In this document: piece after piece, positions 6,813 through 21,238 of the stretch | Layout of the letters: the number at the start of each line of letters is the position of its first letter | Numbering within the stretch: position 1 is the stretch's first letter | DNA from: Polyangiales bacterium | GTDB lineage: Bacteria > Myxococcota_A > Polyangia > Polyangiales > Ga0077539 | NCBI GenBank assembly: GCA_044229975.1 | Contig: JBGARZ010000011.1 | Span: 1-64,000, forward strand | Length of the DNA stretch: 64,000 nt | Direction of reading: 5' to 3' | The notes under the pieces: generated by a model | What the model saw: the letters and a program-made list of their open reading frames with translations, nothing else | Database searches by the model: none | What the model was told of the DNA's origin: nothing | Program-made: the position numbers and the translations under genes

Positions 6813-7499
6813 GTGGAAGCCGCACCGTATCGCGACGCACCGAAGCTCACCCAGGCGCAGCAGCTCGCGGCGGTCGGGCAACGGCGGCGCGAGGCGACCG
6901 GCGTTGATCCGCACGCGGCGGCGGGCGAGCGGCCGGTGTCGGACGTGCGCTCGACGGTGCTCGACCTCGTGACGGACATCGACGGATCGCAGGTGGGGTC
7001 GCACGTGCTCTTCGGGGCGTCGATGATCGGGCTGCTCGGGGTCTTCGTCGCCGCGGTGATGCTCGTGGTCACGGTGTCCGTGGTCACGGGTCGCCCGCTG
7101 CTCGTGCCGTTGGGGCTGGTCGCGGTGTTCGTGGCGATCGGGTACGGGGTCTCGCGGCGCCGCAACGCGCCCCGCCACTGGCTCGCGCGGCGGGTGCTGC
7201 GCGTCGACGGCTACCTGGAGCTGGTGGGCAGGGAAGACCACGTCGAGCGGGTGCTCGCGCGGCTGGAGTTCGAGCGGCAGCCGCCGGAGGTGCAGTTCGT
7301 GCGCGACCTGCTCGCGGGCGCAGGCTGCGCGTCGGCGGGCGTCGACGAGCGCTCACCGGGCGTGATCGTCATCCACAGTCCAGACGTGGCGGGAGACGCG
7401 AAGCGCCTGCACGGGTGGTTTCAGGCGCTCACCGACCGGGCGCTGGTTCCGCTGCACGAGACGTATCCGGTGGCGCTGGTGACGGTCGAAGAGCGCTGA
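6813..7499 (+). CDS. Hypothetical membrane protein (2 TM); start uncertain (6741/6774/6813)
   Basis: Coding-like codon usage; two hydrophobic helices. Confidence 0.6.
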   Translation: MEAAPYRDAPKLTQAQQLAAVGQRRREATGVDPHAAAGERPVSDVRSTVLDLVTDIDGSQVGSHVLFGASMIGLLGVFVAAVMLVVTVSVVTGRPLLVPLGLVAVFVAIGYGVSRRRNAPRHWLARRVLRVDGYLELVGREDHVERVLARLEFERQPPEVQFVRDLLAGAGCASAGVDERSPGVIVIHSPDVAGDAKRLHGWFQALTDRALVPLHETYPVALVTVEER

Positions 7500-7653
7500 G
7501 CGGACGAGCAGCGGAGAGGCGCGACGCCTACGTTTCGATCAGCGGTCCGGACCGCGCTGGGTGACCTTCCGGTCGCGACCCTCCGCTTCGCTCCGGGGGA
7601 GGGCGCACTGGGCTGGCGTGGGTGGGTGCCGCGTCGGCTACGCTGAGCACCGC

Positions 7654-9033
7654 ATGGAGCCCATCGTCGTCCGCGAGTACCGGAAGCAGTTGGTGGGGTT
7701 GCTCGTCCTCGTCTTCATGCCCGGGTCACTGGTGTACGGGAAGATCAGCCACCACCAGGGCTTCGACCGCGCAGACTGGCTCTCCTTCGCGCTCCTCCTG
7801 CTACCCGGCCTCTGGTTCATCATCACCGGCTGGTCGACCGTCACCGGGGACGACGATGGGCTGCGACTGCGCACCTTCCGCGGAACACGGCGCGTCCCCT
7901 GGGACTCCATCCGCGACTTCTACGTGCTCGAGTTCGGCGAGACCGCCGACGCCGTCGAGTTCGACGACCGCCGCCTGCTCGCATGGGTCCACGAGCACCC
8001 CCGCGCCGAGTCACTCCGTCAGCTCGTGCTCGCACACGCGACGAGCGCGGCGACGCGCGAGTGGGCAACGCGGGAGGCCCGGACGGTCGAGTCGCTGCCG
8101 TGCACCTTCGAGTACCCGCCGCCGCGAATCTCGTGGACGGAAGCGTTGGTCGCGAGCGTCCCGATTGCCCTCGTCGTCGGGGCGCTCGCAATCGAGTTCT
8201 CGCGGGGCGGCTGGGCGCTCCTCCGCGCGCCGTACCTTGTCTCCACGGCGTTCAAGTTGACGGCACTGCCGCTGTTGGTGGTCGGCCTGGAGTGGCCGTG
8301 GTTGCGCGCGCGACGCGACCTGCGCCGCCGACAGGGACAGCGCGTCAATGCCCGCGCGGAGGGCCTGCGCTACGACGACGGGTCGCGTGAGGTCGCGATG
8401 ACCTGGGAGGAGATCACCCGCGTCGTCCCGTCGGGTTCGGCCGGTAGCTTCGTGGAGTTCCGCACCATCGAGTCGAGCCGCGGCTCCTTCGAGGTGAGCA
8501 ACGCCATCAACGACTACCATCGGTTGATGGAGCTCATCGCGCGCCGCGCGCCGCGGGCGATGGAGGCGTGGCGCGACGCAGAAAACCGACGCGAGGACCT
8601 CCTGCCGCCGACGACGCAGCCCGGCGTGAAGGTTCATCACTACCGAACCCGCCCCGAGCGCAACGTCCTGTGGACGCTCGGCGCCGTCTTCGTGGTGATC
8701 GTGGGACTGGCCCTCTATCGCCGCCACTTCACGGACGCGGTCATCACCTCGCTGATCTTCGGGACGCCGCTGACCCTCTTCGCCGTGCGCTACCTCGCGA
8801 CGCGCGTGACGACGGACGCCCGCGGCATCACCTACGAGCGCCTCGGACGGAAGGGCCACCTCGCCTGGAGCGAGCTCGATCGTTGGCGACCGGCGGGCGC
8901 CGATGCCTTCGCGCACCTGCTGATCGAAGGCCGCGACCAGCGCTGGCGCATCTGGAGCGGACTCTCGGATGTGGTGGGCCTCGTCCAGACGCTCGAAGCG
9001 CACCGGCCAACGACCGCAGGCAAGAACCCATGA
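7654..9033 (+). CDS. Membrane protein with three TM-TM plus bacterial PH-like modules
   Basis: Three repeats of two TMs followed by xxxGLR/GIT...W.. motifs (DDDGLRL..VPWDSI; AEGLRY..MTWEEI; ARGITY..LAWSEL). Confidence 0.65.
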   Translation: MEPIVVREYRKQLVGLLVLVFMPGSLVYGKISHHQGFDRADWLSFALLLLPGLWFIITGWSTVTGDDDGLRLRTFRGTRRVPWDSIRDFYVLEFGETADAVEFDDRRLLAWVHEHPRAESLRQLVLAHATSAATREWATREARTVESLPCTFEYPPPRISWTEALVASVPIALVVGALAIEFSRGGWALLRAPYLVSTAFKLTALPLLVVGLEWPWLRARRDLRRRQGQRVNARAEGLRYDDGSREVAMTWEEITRVVPSGSAGSFVEFRTIESSRGSFEVSNAINDYHRLMELIARRAPRAMEAWRDAENRREDLLPPTTQPGVKVHHYRTRPERNVLWTLGAVFVVIVGLALYRRHFTDAVITSLIFGTPLTLFAVRYLATRVTTDARGITYERLGRKGHLAWSELDRWRPAGADAFAHLLIEGRDQRWRIWSGLSDVVGLVQTLEAHRPTTAGKNP

Positions 9034-9455
9034 GCAAGGCGTTCACCAAGGAGGACGACACCGTCGACGACACGCCGGTGGTGCCGCGACCGACGCTCGG
9101 CGCCGTCGTGCGGCTCACCCGCGACGCGGTGACACGACTGCGCGCGGAGGCCGCGACCACCGACGACCCGTCCCGTCGACAGCTGCTCACCGAAGCGCTC
9201 GAGCGCGCGACGCTGGTGCCCGACGGTACGCCCACCCGCGTGGTGCTCGGCGCGAGGGTGACGGTGGAGTCCGACGCGGAGGGGTGGCGTGAGCAACTGC
9301 TGGTGAGTCCCGAGGAGTTCGAGCTGACGGGCCTCGGGTGGAGCGTCGCGTCACCGGTGGGTCGCGCGCTGCTCGGTGCGGAGCCGGGCGACGAGGTCGA
9401 GGTCGACCGACCGCGCGGGCGCATCACGCTCCACGTCGTCGCCGTCGGGGCGTGA
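9030..9455 (+). CDS. GreA/GreB family protein (short form)
   Basis: MSKAFTKEDD start; SVASPVGRALLGAEPGDEVEV C-terminal motif; ATGA overlap with the upstream gene. Confidence 0.85.
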   Translation: MSKAFTKEDDTVDDTPVVPRPTLGAVVRLTRDAVTRLRAEAATTDDPSRRQLLTEALERATLVPDGTPTRVVLGARVTVESDAEGWREQLLVSPEEFELTGLGWSVASPVGRALLGAEPGDEVEVDRPRGRITLHVVAVGA

Positions 9456-9530
9456 CGGAGTCCTCGGCCGCGTGCGGTGAACGCGAACGTGATCGTCGCG
9501 CGCCTTGCTGACGCTGCGGCGTGGACGTAG

Positions 9531-9595
9531 CCGATTGACCTCATCGAAAATAAATCGCGAACCTCGTTGACATGTCCATTGAGGTCCGGTAGACA
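9531..9595 (+). promoter_or_regulatory. Sigma70-like promoter with conserved upstream box (Ro60/Y-RNA locus)
   Basis: TTGACA (9567-9572), 17 nt, TAGACA (9590-9595); upstream box 9531-9560 is 23/30 identical to 21468-21439 on the minus strand. Confidence 0.7.
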
Positions 9596-9640
9596 TCGCG
9601 ACGGGCAGAGGAGCGACAGGGCGTCGCTCCGACAACCACC

Positions 9641-9799
9641 ATGAACCATCCATTCACCACCACCAGATACGAGTTGGATCGCGGCAACAGCCGTCGTCCG
9701 GTGGGCTCGTGCGGGCGCTGGTGTGTCGGCACAGCACGCCGTATGTCCCGCGGCGGCGCGCAGCGTCGGCTGGGGAGCGCAGGGCAGATGAAGGGCTGA
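9641..9799 (+). CDS. Putative 52-aa leader peptide (MNHPFTTTRYELDR...)
   Basis: First ATG after the promoter; context ACCACCATGAAC resembles ACCGCCATGAAC of the tRNA-array leader; embedded in hairpins. No SD at canonical spacing. Confidence 0.3.
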   Translation: MNHPFTTTRYELDRGNSRRPVGSCGRWCVGTARRMSRGGAQRRLGSAGQMKG

Positions 9800-9895
9800 A
9801 ACCCTCCATCACCCTGAGAAGGTCTCAACGAGGCCGGCGCTCCCCCGAAGGAAGCGTCGGCCTTCTGCATTTCGGACCCATGCGTTGGCGCTTAT

Positions 9896-10351
9896 GCCGC
9901 GGGTTGAAACCCACGGCAACGATGCGTGCGCCAGGAAGTCGCCTGAAGTCCGCGGCGGACTCTTATTGGGAGTCCGTTGCGGACTTTGAATACCTTGTTG
10001 TTCGCTCCATCGTTGCCGTGGGTTTCAACCCATTCATTTCTACACATCGGCGGCGCCCTTGGCCGCAGGTTGAAACCTGCGGCAACGATGCGTTCAGTGA
10101 GCGAGGCCGCTGCAAGTCCGCACGCGGACTTCATTCCGAGTCGTCGTCCCTTCGACAAGACTCCAGATAGGATCTCGCCGCACTTTCGAAGGCTCAAGAC
10201 CCCGAGCACAGTCCGCGTGCGGACTTGCAGTGCCGTCCCCCACCGAACGCATCGTTGCCGCAGGTTTCAACCTGCGGCTCAAGGGCGCCACCGATGTGTA
10301 GAAGTGAAAGGGTTTCAACCCGCGGCAACCCGCGGCAACCCGCGGCAACCC
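9896..10351. repeat. REP/BIME-like array of nested inverted repeats
   Basis: Units GTTGCCGYRGGTTTCAACCYGCGGC in alternating orientation; AGTCCG-n-CGGACT hairpins; ~115-bp arms 10014-10130 / 10210-10327; ends in (CAACCCGCGG)x3. Confidence 0.85.
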
Positions 10352-10384
10352 ATTGTCCATTGAACACATTTTGATTCCCCGAAT

Positions 10385-10456
10385 ACCCACCGAGGCTGTT
10401 GGAGAGACCACCGGCGTGCGAAGCCGGAAGGCGTGGTTCGATTCCACGGGTGGGTG
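10385..10456 (+). tRNA. Atypical tRNA-Arg(GCG) or tRNA-like RNA
   Basis: Acceptor ACCCACC/GGTGGGT, anticodon arm CCGGC-GTGCGAA-GCCGG, T arm CGTGG-TTCGATT-CCACG; G at position 8, bulged D stem, G32, no encoded CCA. Confidence 0.7.
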
Positions 10457-10460
10457 CATA

Positions 10461-10537
10461 GGGGGAGCCGCAGTACTACGCCGGGATACTTCCCTGTCAC
10501 GGACCAATCTCCCGGCGTGACCCTCCTCGGCTCCTTC
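10461..10537 (+). ncRNA. Short Y-RNA-like RNA 1
   Basis: Terminal stem GGGGAGCCG/CGGCTCCTT, internal loop CAGTAC opposite a pyrimidine tract, inner stem ACGCCGGGA/TCCCGGCGT followed by TACTTC; just upstream of Ro60. Confidence 0.7.
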
Positions 10538-10543
10538 GTTCGC

Positions 10544-10630
10544 GTGGCCGCAGTACAGCAGCGGGATACTTCAAGCCAAAGTGGTTCACGTAACCATTCC
10601 AAGACACCCGCTGCGCTCTTCCTCGGCCGC
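10544..10630 (+). ncRNA. Short Y-RNA-like RNA 2
   Basis: Same architecture with compensatory changes: GTGGCCG/CGGCCGC, CAGTAC, GCAGCGGG/CCCGCTGC, ATACTTC, CCTCGGC. Confidence 0.7.
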
Positions 10631-10682
10631 ATTCCTGTCCCGTGTCCGCAGATCGATTGTCTGCATTGCAAGGAGTCCCCCC

Positions 10683-12362
10683 ATGGCGCGTCTCGGCATG
10701 TCCTCTTCACGCTCCCTCGCGGCGTCCGTTCGTCACCCGGACCGCACGACCAACAAGGCCGGCGGCGAGGCCTTCGACATCCGCGACCCCTCGCTCCGCC
10801 TTCTCACCATGGTCGGCGGCTCCTTCTGGAACGAGCCGCAGTACTACGGCGACACCCCCGGCGCCGAGCGCCTCCCCGGCTTGTCCGATGAGGCCACGCT
10901 CGTCGTGAGCACGGCCGTCGAGATCGCCCGCGGCCCCAACCCCCGCGACCTCCTCGCGCTCGCCCTCTGGGCCCGCTCGGAGATGAACATCCGCACCACC
11001 CCACAGGTGCTCCTCGCCGTCGCGGCCAACGAGGTCGCGACCAAGCCCTTCGTGCGCGCGTACACCCCGAAGGTGGTGCAGCGCGCCGACGAGCTGCGGC
11101 AGGTGTTCGCCGCGCACCTCTCGCTCTTCGCGGGGGGAGTGGGCGCCAACCAGCACGGGCAGAAGCTGCCCAACTCGCTGAAGAAGGGCCTCGCCGACGC
11201 GTTCGGACGGTTCTCCGAGGCGCAGTTGATGAAGTACGACTCGACCGTGCGCCCGACGTTTCGCGACGTCCTCCGCATGATCGATCGGTCGCGCGACCGC
11301 GGTCTCCCGCAGCCGCTCTTCCGGTACCTCACGACGGGTGAGATCACCGACCCGCTGGCGACGCCCGTCGCCGCCGCGCGCAAGCGCCTCGCGCAGAAGA
11401 CCGCCCTCGACGACGAGGCGCGCGAGCTGATTCGCGAGACGCACTGCACGTGGGAGGTGGTGCTCTCGCAGTTCGGCAACACCCGCGAGACGTGGGAGGC
11501 CGTGCTGCCGGAGATGGGCTACATGGCCGTGCTCCGCAACCTGCGCAACCTCGCGGTGAGCGGCGTCGACCTCACGCCCGTGCTGGCGAAGATCGCCGAT
11601 CCGAAGGAGGTCGCGCGCTCGCGACAGCTCCCGTTCCGCTTCTGGAGCGCGTACCTCACGCTCCAGCAGGCCAACGCGCTCACGTCCAAGGCGGCCGACG
11701 CCCTGGAGGACGCGCTGGCGCACTCCACGGCCGCGCTCTCGCGGCTCCCCGGCGTGACCGTCGTGGCCTCGGACAACTCCGGGTCCATGGGCACGCCGGT
11801 GAGCGCGAAGAGCATGGTGACGCGGCAGGTGGCGGCCAACCTGTTGGCGGCCATCGCGCAGCGCATCTCCGACGAGGGCCACGCGATGGTCTTCGGCGAG
11901 ACCGCGGCGCTGGTGCCGATCTCGACGCGCGACGGGCTCCTCACCAACGTGCGGAAGCAGTCGGAGACCGACGTGGGTCACTCGACCAACGCGCACCGCG
12001 CGGTGGAGCTCATGATCGAGAAGAAGATCAAGGCCGACCGGCTCATCGTCTTCTCCGACATGCAGTGCTGGAACAGCGCCGGCGACGGCCACACCCTCGC
12101 GGGCGCGGTCGCGAAGTACCGGCGCACGGTGAACGCATCGCTCTTCGTCCACTCCGTCGACCTGGCGGGCTCGGGCAAGAGCGCAGTGGTCCCGGACGAC
12201 CCGCGCACCAACCTGGTGAGCGGGTTCAGCGAGAAGGTGCTCGGCACCGTGCTCGCGTTCGAAGGAGCGGTGACCGCGGGCGCGACGGCGACGGCGGGCC
12301 CGCGTGAGGCGACGGTGGCGAAGGCGCTGCCGACGCTCGACGACATCCGGTCGCGCTACTGA
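10683..12362 (+). CDS. rsr: Ro60/TROVE domain RNA-binding protein with VWA domain
   Basis: AAGGAG RBS; NKAGGEAF, MGYMAVLRNLRN and SRQLPFRF TROVE motifs; MIDAS DNSGSM...FSDMQ. Confidence 0.9.
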   Translation: MARLGMSSSRSLAASVRHPDRTTNKAGGEAFDIRDPSLRLLTMVGGSFWNEPQYYGDTPGAERLPGLSDEATLVVSTAVEIARGPNPRDLLALALWARSEMNIRTTPQVLLAVAANEVATKPFVRAYTPKVVQRADELRQVFAAHLSLFAGGVGANQHGQKLPNSLKKGLADAFGRFSEAQLMKYDSTVRPTFRDVLRMIDRSRDRGLPQPLFRYLTTGEITDPLATPVAAARKRLAQKTALDDEARELIRETHCTWEVVLSQFGNTRETWEAVLPEMGYMAVLRNLRNLAVSGVDLTPVLAKIADPKEVARSRQLPFRFWSAYLTLQQANALTSKAADALEDALAHSTAALSRLPGVTVVASDNSGSMGTPVSAKSMVTRQVAANLLAAIAQRISDEGHAMVFGETAALVPISTRDGLLTNVRKQSETDVGHSTNAHRAVELMIEKKIKADRLIVFSDMQCWNSAGDGHTLAGAVAKYRRTVNASLFVHSVDLAGSGKSAVVPDDPRTNLVSGFSEKVLGTVLAFEGAVTAGATATAGPREATVAKALPTLDDIRSRY

Positions 12363-12381
12363 GCACGACGGCACAGACGGT

Positions 12382-12508
12382 GTACTCGGCAGTACAGCGC
12401 GGGGATTCATCGGTTCGAATCCCTTCGTGGCCCACCTACGGGCCGCGGCGCTCAAATCGCAGCGATGCGATCGGGAGCAATTGCTCCGCGCGCCCATTCT
12501 CCGAGCAT
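12382..12508 (+). ncRNA. YrlA-like Y RNA (circularly permuted tRNA mimic)
   Basis: CTCGG/CCGAG and GCGCGG/CCGCGC closing stems with a CAGTAC loop; inside, in order: T loop GGTTCGAATCC, loop-closed acceptor-like stem GTGGCCC/GGGCCGC, D-arm-like GCTC...GG-GAGC carrying an ATCGCA-GCGA-TGCGAT insert. Confidence 0.75.
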
Positions 12509-12521
12509 GAACCACGACGAA

Positions 12522-12577
12522 CGGCCCCATGGACTCCGCCTTCTCCCGGCAACGGGTGGCGAGCGTTCATGGGGCCG
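12522..12577. terminator. Long hairpin between convergent units (possible terminator or processing signal)
   Basis: CGGCCCCATGGAC/GTTCATGGGGCCG stem capped by CCCG-GCAA-CGGG; no U-tract. Confidence 0.35.
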
Positions 12578-12626
12578 CACGCCGTTCACGGTTTCGACAG
12601 AGCGGCGCCCGCAGGCACCGGAGTGC

Positions 12627-13388
12627 CTACAGCACGAAGGGCAGCACCGCGCGTCGCTCGCTCGGATAGTCCGCGAAGCGCTCGCGGTACCAGCGGTGGT
12701 GCGCAATGGCGCGCGGGAGGAGGTTGGCCACCGTCCAGACCGCGAAGGCCACGGCCGGGAGGCTGCGGGTGCAGAGCGCGAAGCCCGCCCACTCGACCAT
12801 CTCGCCCAGGTAGTTGGGGCACGACACCCATCGATAGGGCCCCCCATACGGAACGCGGTACCCACCCTCCCCCTCGCGCCGCAGCCCGCGCAGCACCTCG
12901 TCGGCGTGGACGTTCACCGCCATGCCGCCGACGAAGAGCGCCAGCCCGATGACGAAGCACGGATCGCGATACCACCCCGGCGCGTAGCCCGGCCCGAGCG
13001 CGAAGAGCCAACGCCCGTTGGTGTACCCGTTGATGACGTTGAAGAACGCCCCCGACAGCGCGACCAGCCACGGCATCGGCGTGGCCTTGCCCCGCCAGCG
13101 GAAGGGCTGCACCAGCGTTCGGTTGGCGTAGTGCAACAGCCACATCGCGAGGAAGAGCCACGCCCACGACTCACCGCGGTGCCGCCCCGTCGCGAAGGTG
13201 GCCACCATCAGCGTCGGCGACGCGGCCTCCATCAGCACCCATCCCCAGCGCGAGTCGAGCGTCGGCCCGGCCCAGGCGCTCGCGTGCCGACCGTACGGCG
13301 CGCCGCGGAAGAGCAGCACCACCAGCACCACGGCGGCGAGCGCGATCCACGCCGGGAGCAGCGCGCGAAGGGCCACTGCCTCGCTCAA
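12627..13388 (-). CDS. Steroid 5-alpha-reductase-like membrane enzyme (3-oxo-5-alpha-steroid 4-dehydrogenase family)
   Basis: APYGRH, GWVLME, HYANR, YRVPYGG, SCPNYLGEMVEW, NLLPRAIAHHRWY; TTG start overlaps the upstream stop. Confidence 0.9.
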   Translation of the reverse strand: MSEAVALRALLPAWIALAAVVLVVLLFRGAPYGRHASAWAGPTLDSRWGWVLMEAASPTLMVATFATGRHRGESWAWLFLAMWLLHYANRTLVQPFRWRGKATPMPWLVALSGAFFNVINGYTNGRWLFALGPGYAPGWYRDPCFVIGLALFVGGMAVNVHADEVLRGLRREGEGGYRVPYGGPYRWVSCPNYLGEMVEWAGFALCTRSLPAVAFAVWTVANLLPRAIAHHRWYRERFADYPSERRAVLPFVL

Positions 13389-14383
13389 GCGAGCATCCCC
13401 TGCTGGCCGTACCACTCCATCATCTCGCGCACGGTGTCTTCGAGCGGGCGCGGCCGGTGACCCAACACCCGCGCGGCCTTCGCGTGCGAGACCGATCGCC
13501 GCGTGTCGAGCGTGTGCAGCGCCGCGTGCGTGAAGGGCGTGCGCCACTGGAAGAGCCCCATCACCGCATCCACGGCGGGAACGATCGCCTGGAGCGGTCG
13601 CAGCGGCAGGACGATGGGCGGCGGCCGGCGACCCACCGCGCGCGCCGCGTACCCTGCGACCTCCAGCGCCTCGGCGCGTCGACCGCCGACGATGTAGTGC
13701 TCGCCCGCGGGTGCGAGCGCGGGGTCTTCCGCCGCGAGGCCGGCGGCGATGACGTCGCGCACGTCGACCCAGTCGAAGCCGCCGCGCACGAGCACGGGCT
13801 CCTTGCCGAGGGCGGCGCGGCGCAGCCAGCGGCCCTGGTTGGAGGTTCCGTGGTCGAAGGGGCCGAGCACGCCGGTGGGGTGCAGCGTGACGGCGTCGAG
13901 CCCGACGGTGACGGCCTCGTCGACGACCATGCTGCCGCGCGCCTTGGTGCGATCGTACGCGGGCATCGAGGCGTGGGTGGCGTAGGCGCGTCCCTCGTCG
14001 AGCACGTCGTCCGAGCGGTCGGCGTGGAAGGCGTGAATCGAGCTGTAGTGGATCATGCGCGCCCCGTGGGTCCGCGCGGCGGCGGCGACGTGACGCACGC
14101 CCTCGACGTTGACGGCCTCCATCAGCGAGAGGTCCCACGGGTGCAGTCGGACGAGCGCCGCGAGGTGGTGCACGGAGCCGCAGCCCTCCATCGCACGCTG
14201 CACCGAGGCCGCGTCGCGGACGTCGCCGCGCACGCGCTCCACGTCGAGCCCGGTGAGCGCGGACTCGGTGTGGTGGACCATCACGCGCACCGGCCGCCCC
14301 GCCGCGAGGAGGGAGCGCACCAGCGCCGAACCGAGGTGCCCGGTGGCGCCCGTCACGAGAACCTTCGACTGCATCTCTGTCAT
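13385..14383 (-). CDS. NAD-dependent epimerase/dehydratase (3-beta-HSD/dihydroflavonol reductase-like extended SDR)
   Basis: VLVTGATGHLG, HLAA, YxxxK (YDRTK), VDVRDV. Confidence 0.85.
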   Translation of the reverse strand: MTEMQSKVLVTGATGHLGSALVRSLLAAGRPVRVMVHHTESALTGLDVERVRGDVRDAASVQRAMEGCGSVHHLAALVRLHPWDLSLMEAVNVEGVRHVAAAARTHGARMIHYSSIHAFHADRSDDVLDEGRAYATHASMPAYDRTKARGSMVVDEAVTVGLDAVTLHPTGVLGPFDHGTSNQGRWLRRAALGKEPVLVRGGFDWVDVRDVIAAGLAAEDPALAPAGEHYIVGGRRAEALEVAGYAARAVGRRPPPIVLPLRPLQAIVPAVDAVMGLFQWRTPFTHAALHTLDTRRSVSHAKAARVLGHRPRPLEDTVREMMEWYGQQGMLA

Positions 14384-14426
14384 CTCCGCTTGACTCGCAC
14401 CGAAGCTAAGCCACGTCGCGGCAACG

Positions 14427-15446
14427 TCACCAGCGGTTGCGCGTCTCCTCGGCGAACCCACGGAGACGCTCGATGACGACCACCCGACCATCGCCGCCGG
14501 TGACCGTGCCCGACCACGTTCCGAAGCACTGGTGCACCTCCATCTTGAGGAGCTTCACGTCGACCCTCTCGTAGCGGTCGAAGGTCGGCATGAGCGTCAC
14601 GTCCACCTGCGATGACCCGCGCGAGCGCACCCGCCACGGGCGCAACGGATGGTCCCAGTCGTAGGTCCATTCGAGCTCCTCGCCGATCTTGGTGAGGCGA
14701 CCGTCGAGGCAGAGCGCGTTCTCGGTGTAGCCGGTTCCTTCGGTCCACTTGCCGCCGAACTGCAAGCCGACGAGGCGACCCTCCGTAGAGCGCCCGGAGG
14801 CGGCGGCCCAGTTCCAGTGGTTGGCGTACGGCCAGATGCCGCGACCGAGGTCCTGCACCGCCCACGCGTCGTCACCGACGGCCCAGCGTCGATCGCCGAC
14901 GGACACCACACCGCGCACCGGCCGCGCGTTGTGCTTCGACGTGAACTGAAACTGCTCGTCGCTCCACGGGATCACCACGTTGAGCGACTCGTGCCCCGCG
15001 GGCTTGTCGACCGTGAGCTCCACGTCGAGCCGACCGTGCCGCGTCGACGGCGCAACGGCGCGCAGCAACGTGGCCGAGGGCGTCTCGTCGATGGTCATCG
15101 AGAGCGACCGCGTCGACACCGCAGTGGTGCCCGTACACACCTGCTCCGGCAGCGCGAACCCGCGACCGAAGAGCGCGAACGTGTCGACCTTCGTCGCGCG
15201 GTGGTCGACGGCGTCGAGCACCCAGCAGCCCGCGAGGCCCGCGTAGTCGACGTCGGCGTACACGAGCGCCACGACCACGTCGGGCGTCATCACGCACCAG
15301 TAGTCCCAGCGCTTCTTGCGGCCGTGCGCGCCGCGCAGGTTGGCCCGCAGCATCGGGGCCCGCGACCATCCGCGCGCGACCGGGTTCAGTCGCCCGTTGG
15401 CGTCGCAGAGGTCGACCGGGTCGGTGAGTTCGCGCTCGTGTCCCAT
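14427..15446 (-). CDS. DUF2804 family protein
   Basis: GWSR, RKKRWDYW, DLGRGIWPY..WNWA, TENA, VHQCFG, GFAEE..NRW. Confidence 0.75.
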   Translation of the reverse strand: MGHERELTDPVDLCDANGRLNPVARGWSRAPMLRANLRGAHGRKKRWDYWCVMTPDVVVALVYADVDYAGLAGCWVLDAVDHRATKVDTFALFGRGFALPEQVCTGTTAVSTRSLSMTIDETPSATLLRAVAPSTRHGRLDVELTVDKPAGHESLNVVIPWSDEQFQFTSKHNARPVRGVVSVGDRRWAVGDDAWAVQDLGRGIWPYANHWNWAAASGRSTEGRLVGLQFGGKWTEGTGYTENALCLDGRLTKIGEELEWTYDWDHPLRPWRVRSRGSSQVDVTLMPTFDRYERVDVKLLKMEVHQCFGTWSGTVTGGDGRVVVIERLRGFAEETRNRW

Positions 15447-15477
15447 CGCGCGACGGATCTTCGCGCGGATCGCCTTC

Positions 15478-16074
15478 CTACGCCCGACCGCCCGCGTCGA
15501 ACGCGCGGAGCGTGACCGAGATGCGTCGGCGCCCGCTCCGCGCCGAGTGCGGCACCTCGTGCGTCCACGCCTGGTTGGTGTCGTACGGCAGCACGAACAC
15601 CGCGCCGTCGTGCGCGACGAAATCCCGCACACCGTCGGCCCGCCAGGGCCGCAGACGAAACGTCCGCTCCGCCCCGAAGGACACGGTCACGATGGGCGCG
15701 CCGCGCACCATGTCGATGGTGCTGTCGCGGTGCTTGCCGATGTAGTGCCCGCGCTCAGCGTCGTACCAGTTGAGCAGCAGGCCGTTGAGCCGAGCGTCGA
15801 TCTGCTCGCGCGCCCACGCGTGCAGCGCGCTCAGGTCGCCCGGCACGGGCAAGGCCCGGTTGAGGTTGCCCGTGTACCGGTAGTCGGCGCCGTAGGCCTG
15901 CTGCCAGCGCGGCGTCTTGACCAGACGCCCGTGCATCTTGATCTCGTGAAACTCATCCGGGTGCAGCGCCCACAGCGCCTCGAAGGCCGCGTCGTCGAGG
16001 CGCAGCTCGGCGGACAGCGAGCCCACGAAGAACGAGTGACGGTCGTCGAGACGGTGTTCTACGAGGTCGATCAC
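15478..16074 (-). CDS. AlkB-family 2OG-Fe(II) dioxygenase
   Basis: TPRWQQAYG, LLNWY, HRD (HxD), THEVP, RISVTLR. Confidence 0.88.
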   Translation of the reverse strand: MIDLVEHRLDDRHSFFVGSLSAELRLDDAAFEALWALHPDEFHEIKMHGRLVKTPRWQQAYGADYRYTGNLNRALPVPGDLSALHAWAREQIDARLNGLLLNWYDAERGHYIGKHRDSTIDMVRGAPIVTVSFGAERTFRLRPWRADGVRDFVAHDGAVFVLPYDTNQAWTHEVPHSARSGRRRISVTLRAFDAGGRA

Positions 16075-20890: not shown

Positions 20891-20965
20891 TGGCGCCCCC
20901 ACCGGGAATTGAACCCGGGTTCTCCGCGTGACAAGCGGGTATCCGTTCCACTGGATCATGAGGGC
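20891..20965 (-). tRNA. tRNA-Asp(GTC)
   Basis: GCCCTCA...CCCGC-TTGTCAC-GCGGA...CCGGG-TTCAATT-CCCGG-TGGGGGC-G-CCA; full cloverleaf, CCA encoded. Confidence 0.92.
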
Positions 20966-20974
20966 GATCGAGAG

Positions 20975-21048
20975 CGTTCTCGGGAGGACTCGAACCTCCA
21001 ATGACCGGCTTCGTAGACCGGGGGTCTATCCAATTGACCAACGAGAAC
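20975..21048 (-). tRNA. tRNA-Arg(ACG)
   Basis: GTTCTCG/CGAGAAC acceptor; CCGGT-CTACGAA-GCCGG; GGAGG-TTCGAGT-CCTCC. Confidence 0.9.
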
Positions 21049-21066
21049 AACGGACGAAGGCAAAGG

Positions 21067-21139
21067 CGTCCCCAGGGGGGTTCGAACCCCCGTGTCCTGG
21101 CTGAGAACCAGGCATCCTGGGCCACTAGATGATGGGGAC
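21067..21139 (-). tRNA. tRNA-Glu(CTC)
   Basis: GTCCCCA/TGGGGAC acceptor; CCTGG-TTCTCAG-CCAGG; Glu-type D arm. Confidence 0.92.
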
Positions 21140-21165
21140 GTGTCGCATCAGCTCGCGCTGATCGG

Positions 21166-21238
21166 CACCACCGGAGGGACTCGAACCCTCATCAACCGGA
21201 ACGAAACTCCGGTGTCCTGGCCGTTAGACGACGGTGGC
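21166..21238 (-). tRNA. tRNA-Glu(TTC) with atypical anticodon loop
   Basis: GCCACCG/CGGTGGT acceptor; Glu-type D arm; CCGGA-GTTTCGT-TCCGG (G32, G37, T38). Confidence 0.82.

Follow-up and report, generated by a model that had tools for sequence, protein, structure and literature searches.

Bacterial Y RNAs of the YrlA type (RF02553; PMC4201824; bioRxiv 10.1101/312249) are encoded on the same strand as the Ro60 gene and within a few kilobases of it, and they comprise a stem formed by their 5' and 3' ends, a YUAY-like motif before the variable region, and a tRNA-like domain in the order T arm, closed acceptor stem, D arm. In the YrlA stem, the 5' strand alone is conserved (PMC4201824). YrlA has neither an anticodon loop nor a free CCA end, its likeness to permuted pre-tRNAs has been discussed by Wang et al. 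2018 (bioRxiv 10.1101/312249), and cleavage was seen in one of three species (Chen 2014, PMC4201824). A short second Y RNA, a long hairpin without a full tRNA domain, is represented by YrlB (RF02565) of S. Typhimurium and M. smegmatis and by Yrn2 of D. radiodurans, the latter co-transcribed with a tRNA and Yrn1 (PMC4201824). Such short Y RNAs evade bioinformatic detection, and some bacteria with Ro60 are left without a candidate (PMC4201824). In animals, a bulged C in the stem serves as the Ro60 site (PMC4030889). For the Ro60 of phage phiLo (phiRo60; PDB 9KOP, 9L5Y), Yrl1 and Yrl2 were taken upstream of the gene by their CGAA motif, and a mimic of Yrl2 gave a KD of about 17 nM (PMC12135203). 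L-arrays, such as the Anabaena trn operon, are long arrays of tRNA genes in which an HNH endonuclease gene is embedded, and they are stress-induced; the paper describing them (PMC8421152) contains no mention of 'TROVE', 'Y RNA' or 'Ro60'.

The window, the whole 64,000-nt stretch of DNA analysed here, comes from an uncultured myxobacterium and contains a locus ordinary in kind, with a Ro60-type gene accompanied by short and tRNA-like Y RNAs (Table 1). Two hairpins, RNA1 and RNA2, precede the TROVE/vWA gene, and a third, RNA3, follows it. While the pairing of short and tRNA-like copies is known, the handle that these RNAs have in common is a distinct version that accompanies divergent TROVE genes, and this is what is new.

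Table 1. Features of the locus, in window coordinates
Feature	Position	Strand	Basis
Possible sigma70-type promoter (TTGACA, 17 nt, TAGACA)	9567..9595	+	sequence
Possible leader ORF, 52 aa	9641..9799	+	translation
Conserved leader hairpins, attenuator/terminator-like	9781..9873	+	BLASTN to L001, L002, L003
REP/MITE-like inverted repeats, outside the RNA family	9883..10330	.	self inverted match
tRNA-Arg(GCG)-like gene, without encoded CCA	10385..10457	+	ARAGORN; Rfam tRNA
RNA1, minimal Y-like RNA	10461..10537	+	fold, covariation, model R1
RNA2, minimal Y-like RNA	10544..10630	+	fold, covariation, model R1
TROVE + vWA protein, 559 aa, divergent non-Rsr Ro60 group	10683..12362	+	Pfam, PDB match, model, tree
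RNA3, intact handle with likely damaged permuted-tRNA module	~12382..12508	+	R1, comparison with related long copies

The handle common to RNA1, RNA2 and RNA3 consists of an outer stem, one bulged base, a 2-bp helix and an inner stem, together with a WUWCWUC motif and a 3' pyrimidine loop. The elements on which a preceding sequence-only reading had based the likeness are confirmed: GCAGTAC starts at 10470, 10550 and 12389, the inner stem has GGGAT at its end in all three copies, and the pyrimidine-rich 3' loop measures 9 nt in each. The lengths it gave for the upstream copies, 77 and 87 nt, are correct, and the T arm-acceptor-D arm order is absent from both, in keeping with its statement that they lack a tRNA-like domain. 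The bulged 2-bp helix escaped that reading and was found with RNAalifold, which adds two invariant pairs following one bulged base. In RNA1, the outer stem leads to G10470, bulged C10471, the AG/CU 2-bp helix, the inner stem, AUACUUC and a small distal hairpin ahead of the 3' loop; in RNA2, the distal hairpin (GUGGUU/AACCAU) is one that also occurs in L001, a locus from the same genus. Taken alone, the GCAGTAC 7-mer is weak, the window holding 11 matches where 3.1 are expected, whereas the full handle is not a product of chance. Fold energies lie below those of shuffled sequences (z -4.4 for RNA1, -2.85 for RNA2 and -3.41 for RNA3), and for each RNA, none of 200 shuffles folded as well as the real sequence.

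Compensatory stem changes, proposed earlier from the three copies, extend to homologous loci, where both handle stems covary. Anchoring by sequence only in Myxococcota loci yielded 43 sense and 0 antisense matches to the 5' motif; the 43 include duplicate loci and correspond to 31 unique copies, 24 with a 3' anchor and 7 without, the latter excluded from the pair count. In the 24 anchored copies, 309 of 336 cells are paired, compared with 199.6+/-9.1 when partners are shuffled, and none of 10000 shuffles reached 309. In a MAFFT alignment of 13 short copies (A2), 12 of 15 pairs carry two-sided changes (0/500 shuffles). Across 61 matches to the covariance model R1, 93.5% are paired and two-sided changes occur at all 15 pairs; 60 of these matches lie outside the training set by locus and coordinate, though they are fitted to the model. 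The two pairs of the 2-bp helix, which the model structure did not include, form in 59/61 and 60/61 matches, and covariation support for this helix is thin because its positions are mostly invariant; three substitutions at the handle G position all keep the pair. G-U pairs are frequent in the handle stems, and the bulged base across the 61 members is C in 28, U in 18 and A in 11, being C in RNA1-3. Pair counts based on a structure descriptor were partly circular and were replaced by the sequence-only anchoring. Outside Myxococcota, this descriptor (52 vs 36) and a loose regular expression (117 sense, 34 antisense) proved too noisy, and an order-wide pattern search, many of whose matches are probably coding sequence, does not enter the prevalence figures.

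R1 assigns 70.4 bits to RNA1 and 76.2 bits to RNA2, both in its training set, and 36.0 bits to RNA3, which is outside it. At E<=0.01, the model matched 29 of 75 metagenome TROVE loci (one being a training sequence) and 13 of 70 viral loci (three being duplicate metagenome loci), and none of the 51 metagenome and 29 viral matches was antisense to the TROVE gene. No match at this threshold was obtained in 46 metagenome and 57 viral loci, many of which are short or may use diverged RNAs; prevalence figures from R1 alone are lower bounds. Of the 11 genomes in the family that gave an R1 match, 8 have this TROVE ortholog and in 2 more the match lies beside a second TROVE type, while a weak match in G149 has no TROVE gene nearby. 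Genome-wide search gave no match in G107, G112 and G051, all with the TROVE ortholog, because few candidates were scored; their loci hold copies. None of six cultured-phage loci reached E<=0.01 (best 0.013): BRock, MET23-P3 and CcrColossus gave weak sense-strand matches (E 0.013-0.18), and Satis, HGTV-1 and Desulfovibrio phage 7757 gave none. Five canonical Ro60 loci, searched with filters off, scored 10.4 bits at best (E>=1). In mycobacteriophage Shifa, two short copies and one tRNA-like copy stand beside a canonical Ro60 by eye and have a TTACCTC motif in common, so the R1 family and the canonical families are probably distantly related. On sequence grounds, the handle family is widespread beside divergent TROVE genes and goes unrecognised by Rfam as searched here.

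The resemblance of this family to YrlA covers strand, distance from the Ro60 gene, the stem formed by both ends, the order of tRNA-like arms in the long copies, and the motif before the variable region, here WUACUUC. Long copies of relatives match RF02553 at 34-53 bits, and the intact tRNA-like copy of the source genome (G000:C21:32610-32753) at 40.5; all these scores fall below the cut-off of 69 and RNA1-3 are unmatched, a strict test, since canonical control loci scored 31-51 and likewise fell short. Unlike YrlA, the family lacks GNCGAAN0-1G (0/13 and 0/61 members, 0/74 together), with one mismatch in RNA1, one in RNA2 and three in RNA3. The first three positions of that motif are covarying stem positions in the handle family, whose invariant core, G-N-AG, is conserved on both strands. 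Further differences are the anticodon-like loop often kept in the long copies and a partner protein that is not an Rsr equivalog. RNA1 and RNA2 resemble YrlB and Yrn2 as short hairpins, and RNA1 follows a tRNA-Arg-like gene much as Yrn2 accompanies a tRNA; they differ in their 5' motif and in their tandem arrangement, and RF02565 matched neither in the local scan nor at E<=10 in the genome (150/1048 candidates scored). An Rfam scan of 7000-16000 at E<=5 returned only a sub-threshold tRNA and chance miRNA and snoRNA matches. The earlier suggestion that the minimal copies are uncatalogued therefore holds at the family level, there being no Rfam match at E<=5 and no YrlB match in the genome; the idea itself has a precedent, the pairing of short and tRNA-like copies having already been published (Chen 2014, PMC4201824). 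As in Y RNAs generally, the 5' and 3' ends form a long stem that encloses a large internal loop, and the genes adjoin the TROVE gene on the same strand. As in animal Y RNAs, one bulged base separates the terminal stem from a short helix at the position of the Ro60 site, and one side of the internal loop beyond is rich in pyrimidines; unlike them, the sequence is not GGUCCGA and Rfam Y_RNA gave no match.

The 559-aa protein matches Pfam TROVE at 103.8 bits and vWA_Ro60 at 45.9 bits, and its predicted model (pLDDT 83; TM 0.72-0.75 to vertebrate Ro60, at 17-18% identity to animal Ro60) agrees with Pfam in a TROVE helical repeat with a vWA domain forming a ring. The Rsr equivalog NF041674 gave 60.9 bits against a cut-off of 900, and a quick midpoint-drawn tree separates the protein from five canonical Rsr proteins and groups it, on a long branch, with phiLo Ro60, which is also its best PDB sequence match (E 8.5e-22). 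Judged by these sequence comparisons, it is a divergent Ro60-type protein rather than a canonical Rsr. K167/K168 align with K141/K142 of phiRo60, while R137 of phiRo60 falls opposite a gap or a small residue and R178 opposite Ser/Arg. Where most relatives have His-Pro, this clade has Asp-Arg; this site may correspond to the Y-RNA-contacting H187 of animal Ro60. The published Yrl1 and Yrl2 of phiLo do not match the handle model, but two handle-type hairpins lie elsewhere, downstream of the phiLo Ro60 gene at L219:2683-2754 and 2874-2959, missed with default filters and found only with filters off.

RNA3 had been read as having the arm order of YrlA. Its handle core (12385-12505) is intact, and a T-loop (12412-12422), a closed 8-bp acceptor-like stem (12426-12447) and a D-like stem (12450-12478) do follow in the YrlA-type order, but the architecture is only partly preserved. 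The T stem has 2/5 contiguous pairs compared with 4-5/5 in 20/20 parsed long copies of relatives, the spacer between handle motif and T arm, 16-24 nt in the same 20/20, is lost, and the D loop measures 21 nt with an inserted hairpin; the intact 5-bp T stem and tRNA-like D loop from which an elbow could form are missing. The Rfam YrlA model did not match RNA3 at E<=5 locally or at E<=10 genome-wide (150/1256 candidates scored). RNA3 is absent from L001, is skipped in a ~92%-identical contig, and has no full-length homolog in 400 genomes of the order, where only short matches were found (best E 1.6e-4). About 20 nt were likely lost from RNA3, which more probably represents a remnant left by a deletion than an effector module. 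The proposal that one Ro60 loads interchangeable RNAs with different modules keeps its basis in a common covarying handle with differing distal modules beside one Ro60-type gene, but loses RNA3 as a good YrlA example. That RNA3 is instead a functional third module, with a GGGAUUC/GAAUCCC helix in place of the T arm and the inserted hairpin in place of the D loop, is unlikely, given its missing homologs and the spacer and T stem that all parsed relatives retain, even though its handle and acceptor-like stem are intact and relatives have non-standard modules just downstream of the gene (L002 at +317 and +554; L004, L006 and L008 at +87 to +92). At -61.5 kcal/mol vs -53.2 for the tRNA-like fold, this alternative has an advantage of 8 kcal/mol, but minimum-energy folds are weak evidence either way, and the intact C21 copy with its flanks misfolds too.

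In relatives, the TROVE gene lies within tRNA arrays that also contain an HNH gene and number up to 25 called tRNAs, the long array and linked HNH gene being present in L002 and L004. These arrays resemble L-arrays; the array of the source genome differs in being reduced to the one tRNA-like gene that the window holds at this locus. That gene, overlooked in the sequence-only reading, ends 3 nt before RNA1, scores 26 bits with Rfam tRNA, under the cut-off of 29, and is 82-89% identical to the Arg tRNAs that precede the TROVE gene in L002/L003; it is likely a remnant of a long array, and the locus likely a shrunken tRNA array. REP/MITE-like repeats, also present on contigs C2, C4, C19, C21, C23, C34 and C39, occupy the place of the front half of the relatives' array. 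The leader hairpins are of a type that stands ahead of the tRNA array in relatives, and a similar GC hairpin with TGCATTT is visible by eye in L004, L005, L006 and L008; a terminator scan left them uncalled. The spacing of the promoter-like boxes is identical in L001, where a weakly similar ORF also lies in the position matching the leader ORF. A scan of 9400-12700 called 0 promoters, passing over the proposed one because its -10 box lacks the final T.

RNA1-3 are probably Y-type small RNAs bound by the neighbouring TROVE protein, a predicted ring, within what is likely a shrunken stress-response tRNA operon. A single transcript from near 9595 would run through leader, tRNA-Arg, RNA1, RNA2, TROVE gene and RNA3 and be cut into small RNAs, as are tRNA-Asp, Yrn2 and Yrn1 in Deinococcus. 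The outer basic surface of the protein would grip the G-[bulge]-AG/CU-C helix. By analogy alone, the chief role of the minimal RNAs, kept in both genus members that have the TROVE gene, may be that of a gate or stabiliser, occupying the ring and regulating whether damaged RNA can enter; copies with an intact tRNA body, a trans copy on C21 here and many in the relatives' arrays, may tether tRNA-handling enzymes or serve as decoys for them. RNA3 would be expected to load as well, though probably without tRNA mimicry. Counting against this explanation are the residue differences from animal Ro60 and phiRo60 described above, the TROVE loci without an R1 match, the weak match with no TROVE gene nearby, the promoter and terminator left uncalled by the scan, and the lack of an rtcB gene beside the locus.

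RNA1 and RNA2 could alternatively be cis operators in the TROVE mRNA leader, through which the protein controls its own translation or decay while free small RNA is irrelevant. RNA2 ends 52 nt before the ATG and many matches precede the gene by no more than a few hundred nt, but the ribosome-binding site is outside the hairpin, the upstream copy is absent in L004, L005, L006, L008 and L018, and handles are also found downstream of the gene, clustered within tRNA arrays, and on a stretch of contig that has no TROVE gene, which makes this reading improbable. A weak handle-like R1 match inside the TROVE CDS (10830-10885, 25.8 bits) might have suited it; the match, which relatives do not conserve, stems from the codons for NEPQYY and was dismissed as coincidental.

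Still less probable is a handle that serves as a processing signal. The long copies would then be pre-tRNAs in permuted or interrupted form, turned into working tRNAs by cutting and ligation (RNase P, CCA addition, RtcB) while TROVE serves as chaperone, and the minimal copies would be the excised piece in stand-alone form. This reading would suit the 7-nt anticodon-like loops and closed 7-bp acceptor stems of the relatives' long copies, the un-permuted forms before the second TROVE gene, the published comparison with permuted pre-tRNAs, and the three rtcB copies of the genome, all on other contigs with none adjacent to the locus. It is impossible for RNA3, which has no anticodon segment, and is countered by several loops that are not standard anticodon loops, as well as by the missing anticodon loop and free CCA end of YrlA and the restricted cleavage described above. 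That the hairpins are DNA-level repeats without an RNA role is scarcely credible, despite the REP-like repeats immediately upstream and the lack of a transcript in three sequencing runs (5-7% word share; contigs from relatives' DNA or RNA that leave RNA1 and RNA2 uncovered and reach at most the last 23 nt of RNA3), in view of the strict strand bias, frequent G-U pairs, conserved unpaired motifs, fusion of the handle to tRNA bodies, and the presence outside CDS of three copies in the window with few elsewhere in the 10-Mb genome.

With RNA1-3 read as Y-type RNAs of the TROVE protein, a wider view can be put forward tentatively, at somewhat less than even chances: a large divergent Ro60 branch of bacteria and phages would have its own Y-RNA family, defined by the G-[bulge]-AG/CU-C handle with WUACUUC, in which the handle is a universal docking adaptor, either bare, as in the minimal RNAs, or, in stress arrays, inserted in the anticodon stem of many different tRNA bodies, whether permuted or un-permuted, and the natural partners of phiLo Ro60 would be the two downstream hairpins. 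If these are its partners, the published RNP structure was obtained with a non-cognate RNA and would not show the true recognition mode of the branch. For phiRo60, already purified and solved, the model singles out two further candidate RNAs next to the gene. The analysis provides a covariance-supported definition of a short Y RNA class for the divergent Ro60 branch and tells the docking handle apart from its cargo, a distinction needed to ask about Y RNA roles beyond the Deinococcus PNPase case.

The three hairpins flanking the TROVE/vWA (Ro60-type) gene, RNA1, RNA2 and RNA3, belong to a real Ro60/Y-RNA locus, which behaves like a Y RNA system yet falls outside YrlA, YrlB and Rsr when membership of these groups is scored. 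The sequence-only reading had proposed Y-RNA-like genes in these three places, and all three fold strongly, while an Rfam search at E<=5 returned no Y RNA, YrlA or YrlB match for any of them.

Features of the TROVE locus, forward-strand numbering
Feature	Position	Strand	Evidence
tRNA-like gene	10385-10457	+	tRNA gene call
RNA1	10461-10537	+	fold z -4.4
RNA2	10544-10630	+	fold z -2.85
TROVE ORF, 559 aa	10683-12362	+	Pfam TROVE + vWA_Ro60
RNA3	about 12382-12508	+	fold z -3.41

The shared, covarying element that had been proposed is borne out as a handle comprising an outer stem, one bulged base, a 2-bp helix, an inner stem, a WUWCWUC motif and a 3' pyrimidine loop. In a MAFFT alignment of 13 short copies, 91.9% of cells are paired and both-sided changes occur in 12 of 15 pairs, with 0 of 500 shuffles as good and slid controls only 40-53% paired. 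Anchoring by sequence only in Myxococcota loci gave 43 motif matches in sense, duplicates included (31 unique, 24 with the 3' anchor), and 0 in antisense; 309 of 336 cells are paired in those 24 copies versus 199.6+/-9.1 in shuffles, although shuffles overstate the significance because the sequences are related. RNAalifold added two invariant pairs after the single bulged base, which hold in 59 and 60 of the 61 matches to R1, a covariance model built from handle RNAs including RNA1 and RNA2 and excluding RNA3. Among these matches, the G position of the 2-bp helix shows three changes, all compensated, and the bulged base is C in 28, U in 18 and A in 11; the Ro60 site of animal Y RNAs is described as a bulged C in the accessible part of PMC4030889. 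The YrlA motif GNCGAAN0-1G occurs in none of the 13 short copies or 61 matches, while G-N-AG-Y-R is present in 13 of 13 and 57 of 61, respectively.

R1 matches at E<=0.01 were found in 29 of 75 metagenome and 13 of 70 viral loci of the same TROVE group, none antisense; the E-values are rough and the counts include one training locus and three duplicates. Five canonical Ro60 loci gave no match. With 40 of the 61 matches shorter than 100 nt and devoid of a T loop (19 have one), the form commonly found by R1 is the minimal one. In the host's family, 11 of 31 genomes carry a match: eight also carry the TROVE ortholog, two have the match before a second TROVE type, and the eleventh has a weak match with TROVE absent nearby. 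The handle RNAs are very probably the RNA partners of the TROVE protein.

The host genome is GC-rich and 10 Mb in size, and the nearest TROVE relatives lie in Myxococcota metagenome-assembled genomes. The AlphaFold model of the protein (pLDDT 83) matches vertebrate Ro60 with TM 0.72-0.75, Deinococcus Rsr with 0.61 and phiRo60, the Ro60 of phage phiLo, with 0.55-0.56. By sequence, the top PDB match is phiRo60 (E 8.5e-22), Deinococcus Rsr is not among the four PDB matches, and the Rsr equivalog model scores 60.9 (cut-off 900). A quick tree from 43 selected proteins, rooted at the midpoint only and with phiRo60 on a long branch, shows a long, fully supported branch separating five canonical Ro60s from the window's clade, phiRo60 and a second TROVE protein of the same genome (G000:C4:125883-127747, 30% identical). 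K167/K168 align with phiRo60 K141/K142, whose mutation is reported to lower RNA binding in the part of PMC12135203 available. At residues about 200-202 (about 11280-11290), the clade has Asp-Arg where most relatives have His-Pro, a replacement that may alter an RNA contact. A handle-like match inside the TROVE CDS (10830-10885, 25.8 bits) lacks conservation in relatives and is probably a codon coincidence.

The tRNA domain ascribed to RNA3 has the proposed order of parts, yet as a module it is defective. Of 22 long copies picked by hand, 21 could be parsed, and in 20 of these the handle motif stands 16-24 nt from the T arm and the T stem forms 4-5 of its 5 pairs; in RNA3 the spacer is absent and 2 of the 5 pairs form. 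A hairpin interrupts the 21-nt D loop of RNA3, and its T loop is buried by a competing helix in the predicted fold. RNA3 is absent from the same-genus locus L001, a contig about 92% identical skips from 12364 to 12563, and no full-length homolog was found in 400 genomes of the order. RNA3 is possibly a lineage-specific third module; the simplest reading is that it lost about 20 nt by deletion. Elsewhere in the genome, the same handle is carried by an intact permuted-tRNA copy (G000:C21:32610-32753; YrlA 40.5 bits, R1 39.8 bits), directly following tRNA-Thr(CGT) (the pair at G000:C21:32540-32753, equal to L212:1414-1627), with no TROVE gene found within 1.5 kb and a counterpart in a same-genus genome (G177:C239, L242).

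The two-architecture concept itself is already known, since Chen et al. (2014, PMC4201824), in the sections available, describe for every species characterised one Y RNA that is tRNA-like and one that is a short hairpin, with Yrn2 co-transcribed with a tRNA. Their Table S1, as far as accessible, predicts YrlA next to TROVE genes of Firmicutes and delta-proteobacteria, and the window's TROVE branch may include some of these genes. According to the available part of Wang et al. (2018), YrlA lacks an anticodon loop. Our literature search found no description of the handle; Wolin-lab reviews, outside that search, could contain one. TROVE, Ro60 and Y RNA have zero occurrences in the accessible main text of the RNA-discovery papers checked, and TROVE is mentioned in passing in PMC7824862 and PMC11208441. 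By eye, the Chondromyces YrlA-II seed in the accessible supplementary text 2 of PMC4201824 looks like a tandem pair of tRNAs (Asn, Thr) and not like a Y RNA, a sign that tRNA arrays next to TROVE genes can be mistaken for YrlA.

In relatives, the TROVE gene is embedded in tRNA arrays, with 25 tRNA genes called in L002, 11 in L003, 12 in L004, 4 in L005, 9 in L006 and 12 in L008 within the fetched stretches, and none called in L001 or L007. These arrays come with an HNH gene and resemble stress-induced L-arrays as outlined in the accessible text of PMC8421152. Several handle RNAs occur in each of the arrays of L002, L004, L006, L008, L018 and L231; 7-nt anticodon-like loops (Phe-like, Cys-like and others) are present in some, and long variable arms or odd D hairpins in some. 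The window retains one array tRNA, a tRNA-Arg (10385-10457) that has anticodon GCG and does not encode CCA, and such a gene is called in the L002 and L003 arrays too; this anticodon is unusual in bacteria. It also retains the leader, where 9567-9873 holds a possible promoter, a leader ORF of 52 aa and attenuator-like hairpins that are conserved ahead of the tRNA array in every close relative examined; this region may be a translation-sensing leader. The gap between leader and tRNA is occupied by REP/MITE-like inverted repeats (9883-10330) with copies on at least 7 contigs. TGTCCATTG lies at 9573 in the promoter spacer and again at about 10354 before the tRNA, and twice in L001 too, and is a possible operator. 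A GreA/GreB C-terminal-domain gene (9030-9455) adjoins the leader upstream, and four tRNA genes (Glu, Glu, Arg, Asp) cluster at 20891-21238 on the - strand. Upstream of the second TROVE gene, a tRNA of normal part order whose anticodon arm contains the handle precedes a minimal handle RNA, a layout repeated in L021 and L228, with the tRNA form alone in L020.

In phage phiLo, the available part of PMC12135203 has Yrl1 and Yrl2 chosen upstream of phiRo60 by a CGAA motif, and the word 'downstream' is absent from the paper. With filters off, R1 found nothing upstream of the phiRo60 gene at E<=5 and two hairpins directly 3' of it (L219:2683-2754 and 2874-2959, MH673673.1), with 21.4 bits, E 0.0013 and fold z -5.5 for the first and 17.0 bits, E 0.018 and fold z -3.9 for the second (E-values in 40 kb). 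In each hairpin the bulged base is A, the 2-bp helix is GG/CC, and GGGUACUUC and a pyrimidine 3' loop are present; the two overlap the CDS of a 78-aa hypothetical protein. They differ from Yrl1/Yrl2, the upstream RNAs on which published binding results and structure 9L5Y are based, and are predicted to be the likely natural phiRo60 partners; this is a prediction and not a correction, because nM binding of phiRo60 to Yrl2 is reported in the accessible text of PMC12135203.

The analysis establishes the structure of the handle, its strand bias and linkage to the TROVE gene, the fold and the defects of RNA3. As to mechanism, the locus would yield one polycistronic transcript, probably stress-induced, processed into small RNAs, whose bulged helix the ring-shaped protein would bind. 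The minimal RNAs would gate or stabilise the ring; gating, by analogy, is a tentative suggestion that may well prove wrong. Intact tRNA-like copies would tether or decoy tRNA-handling enzymes. As a whole, this account of how the locus works is reasonably probable.
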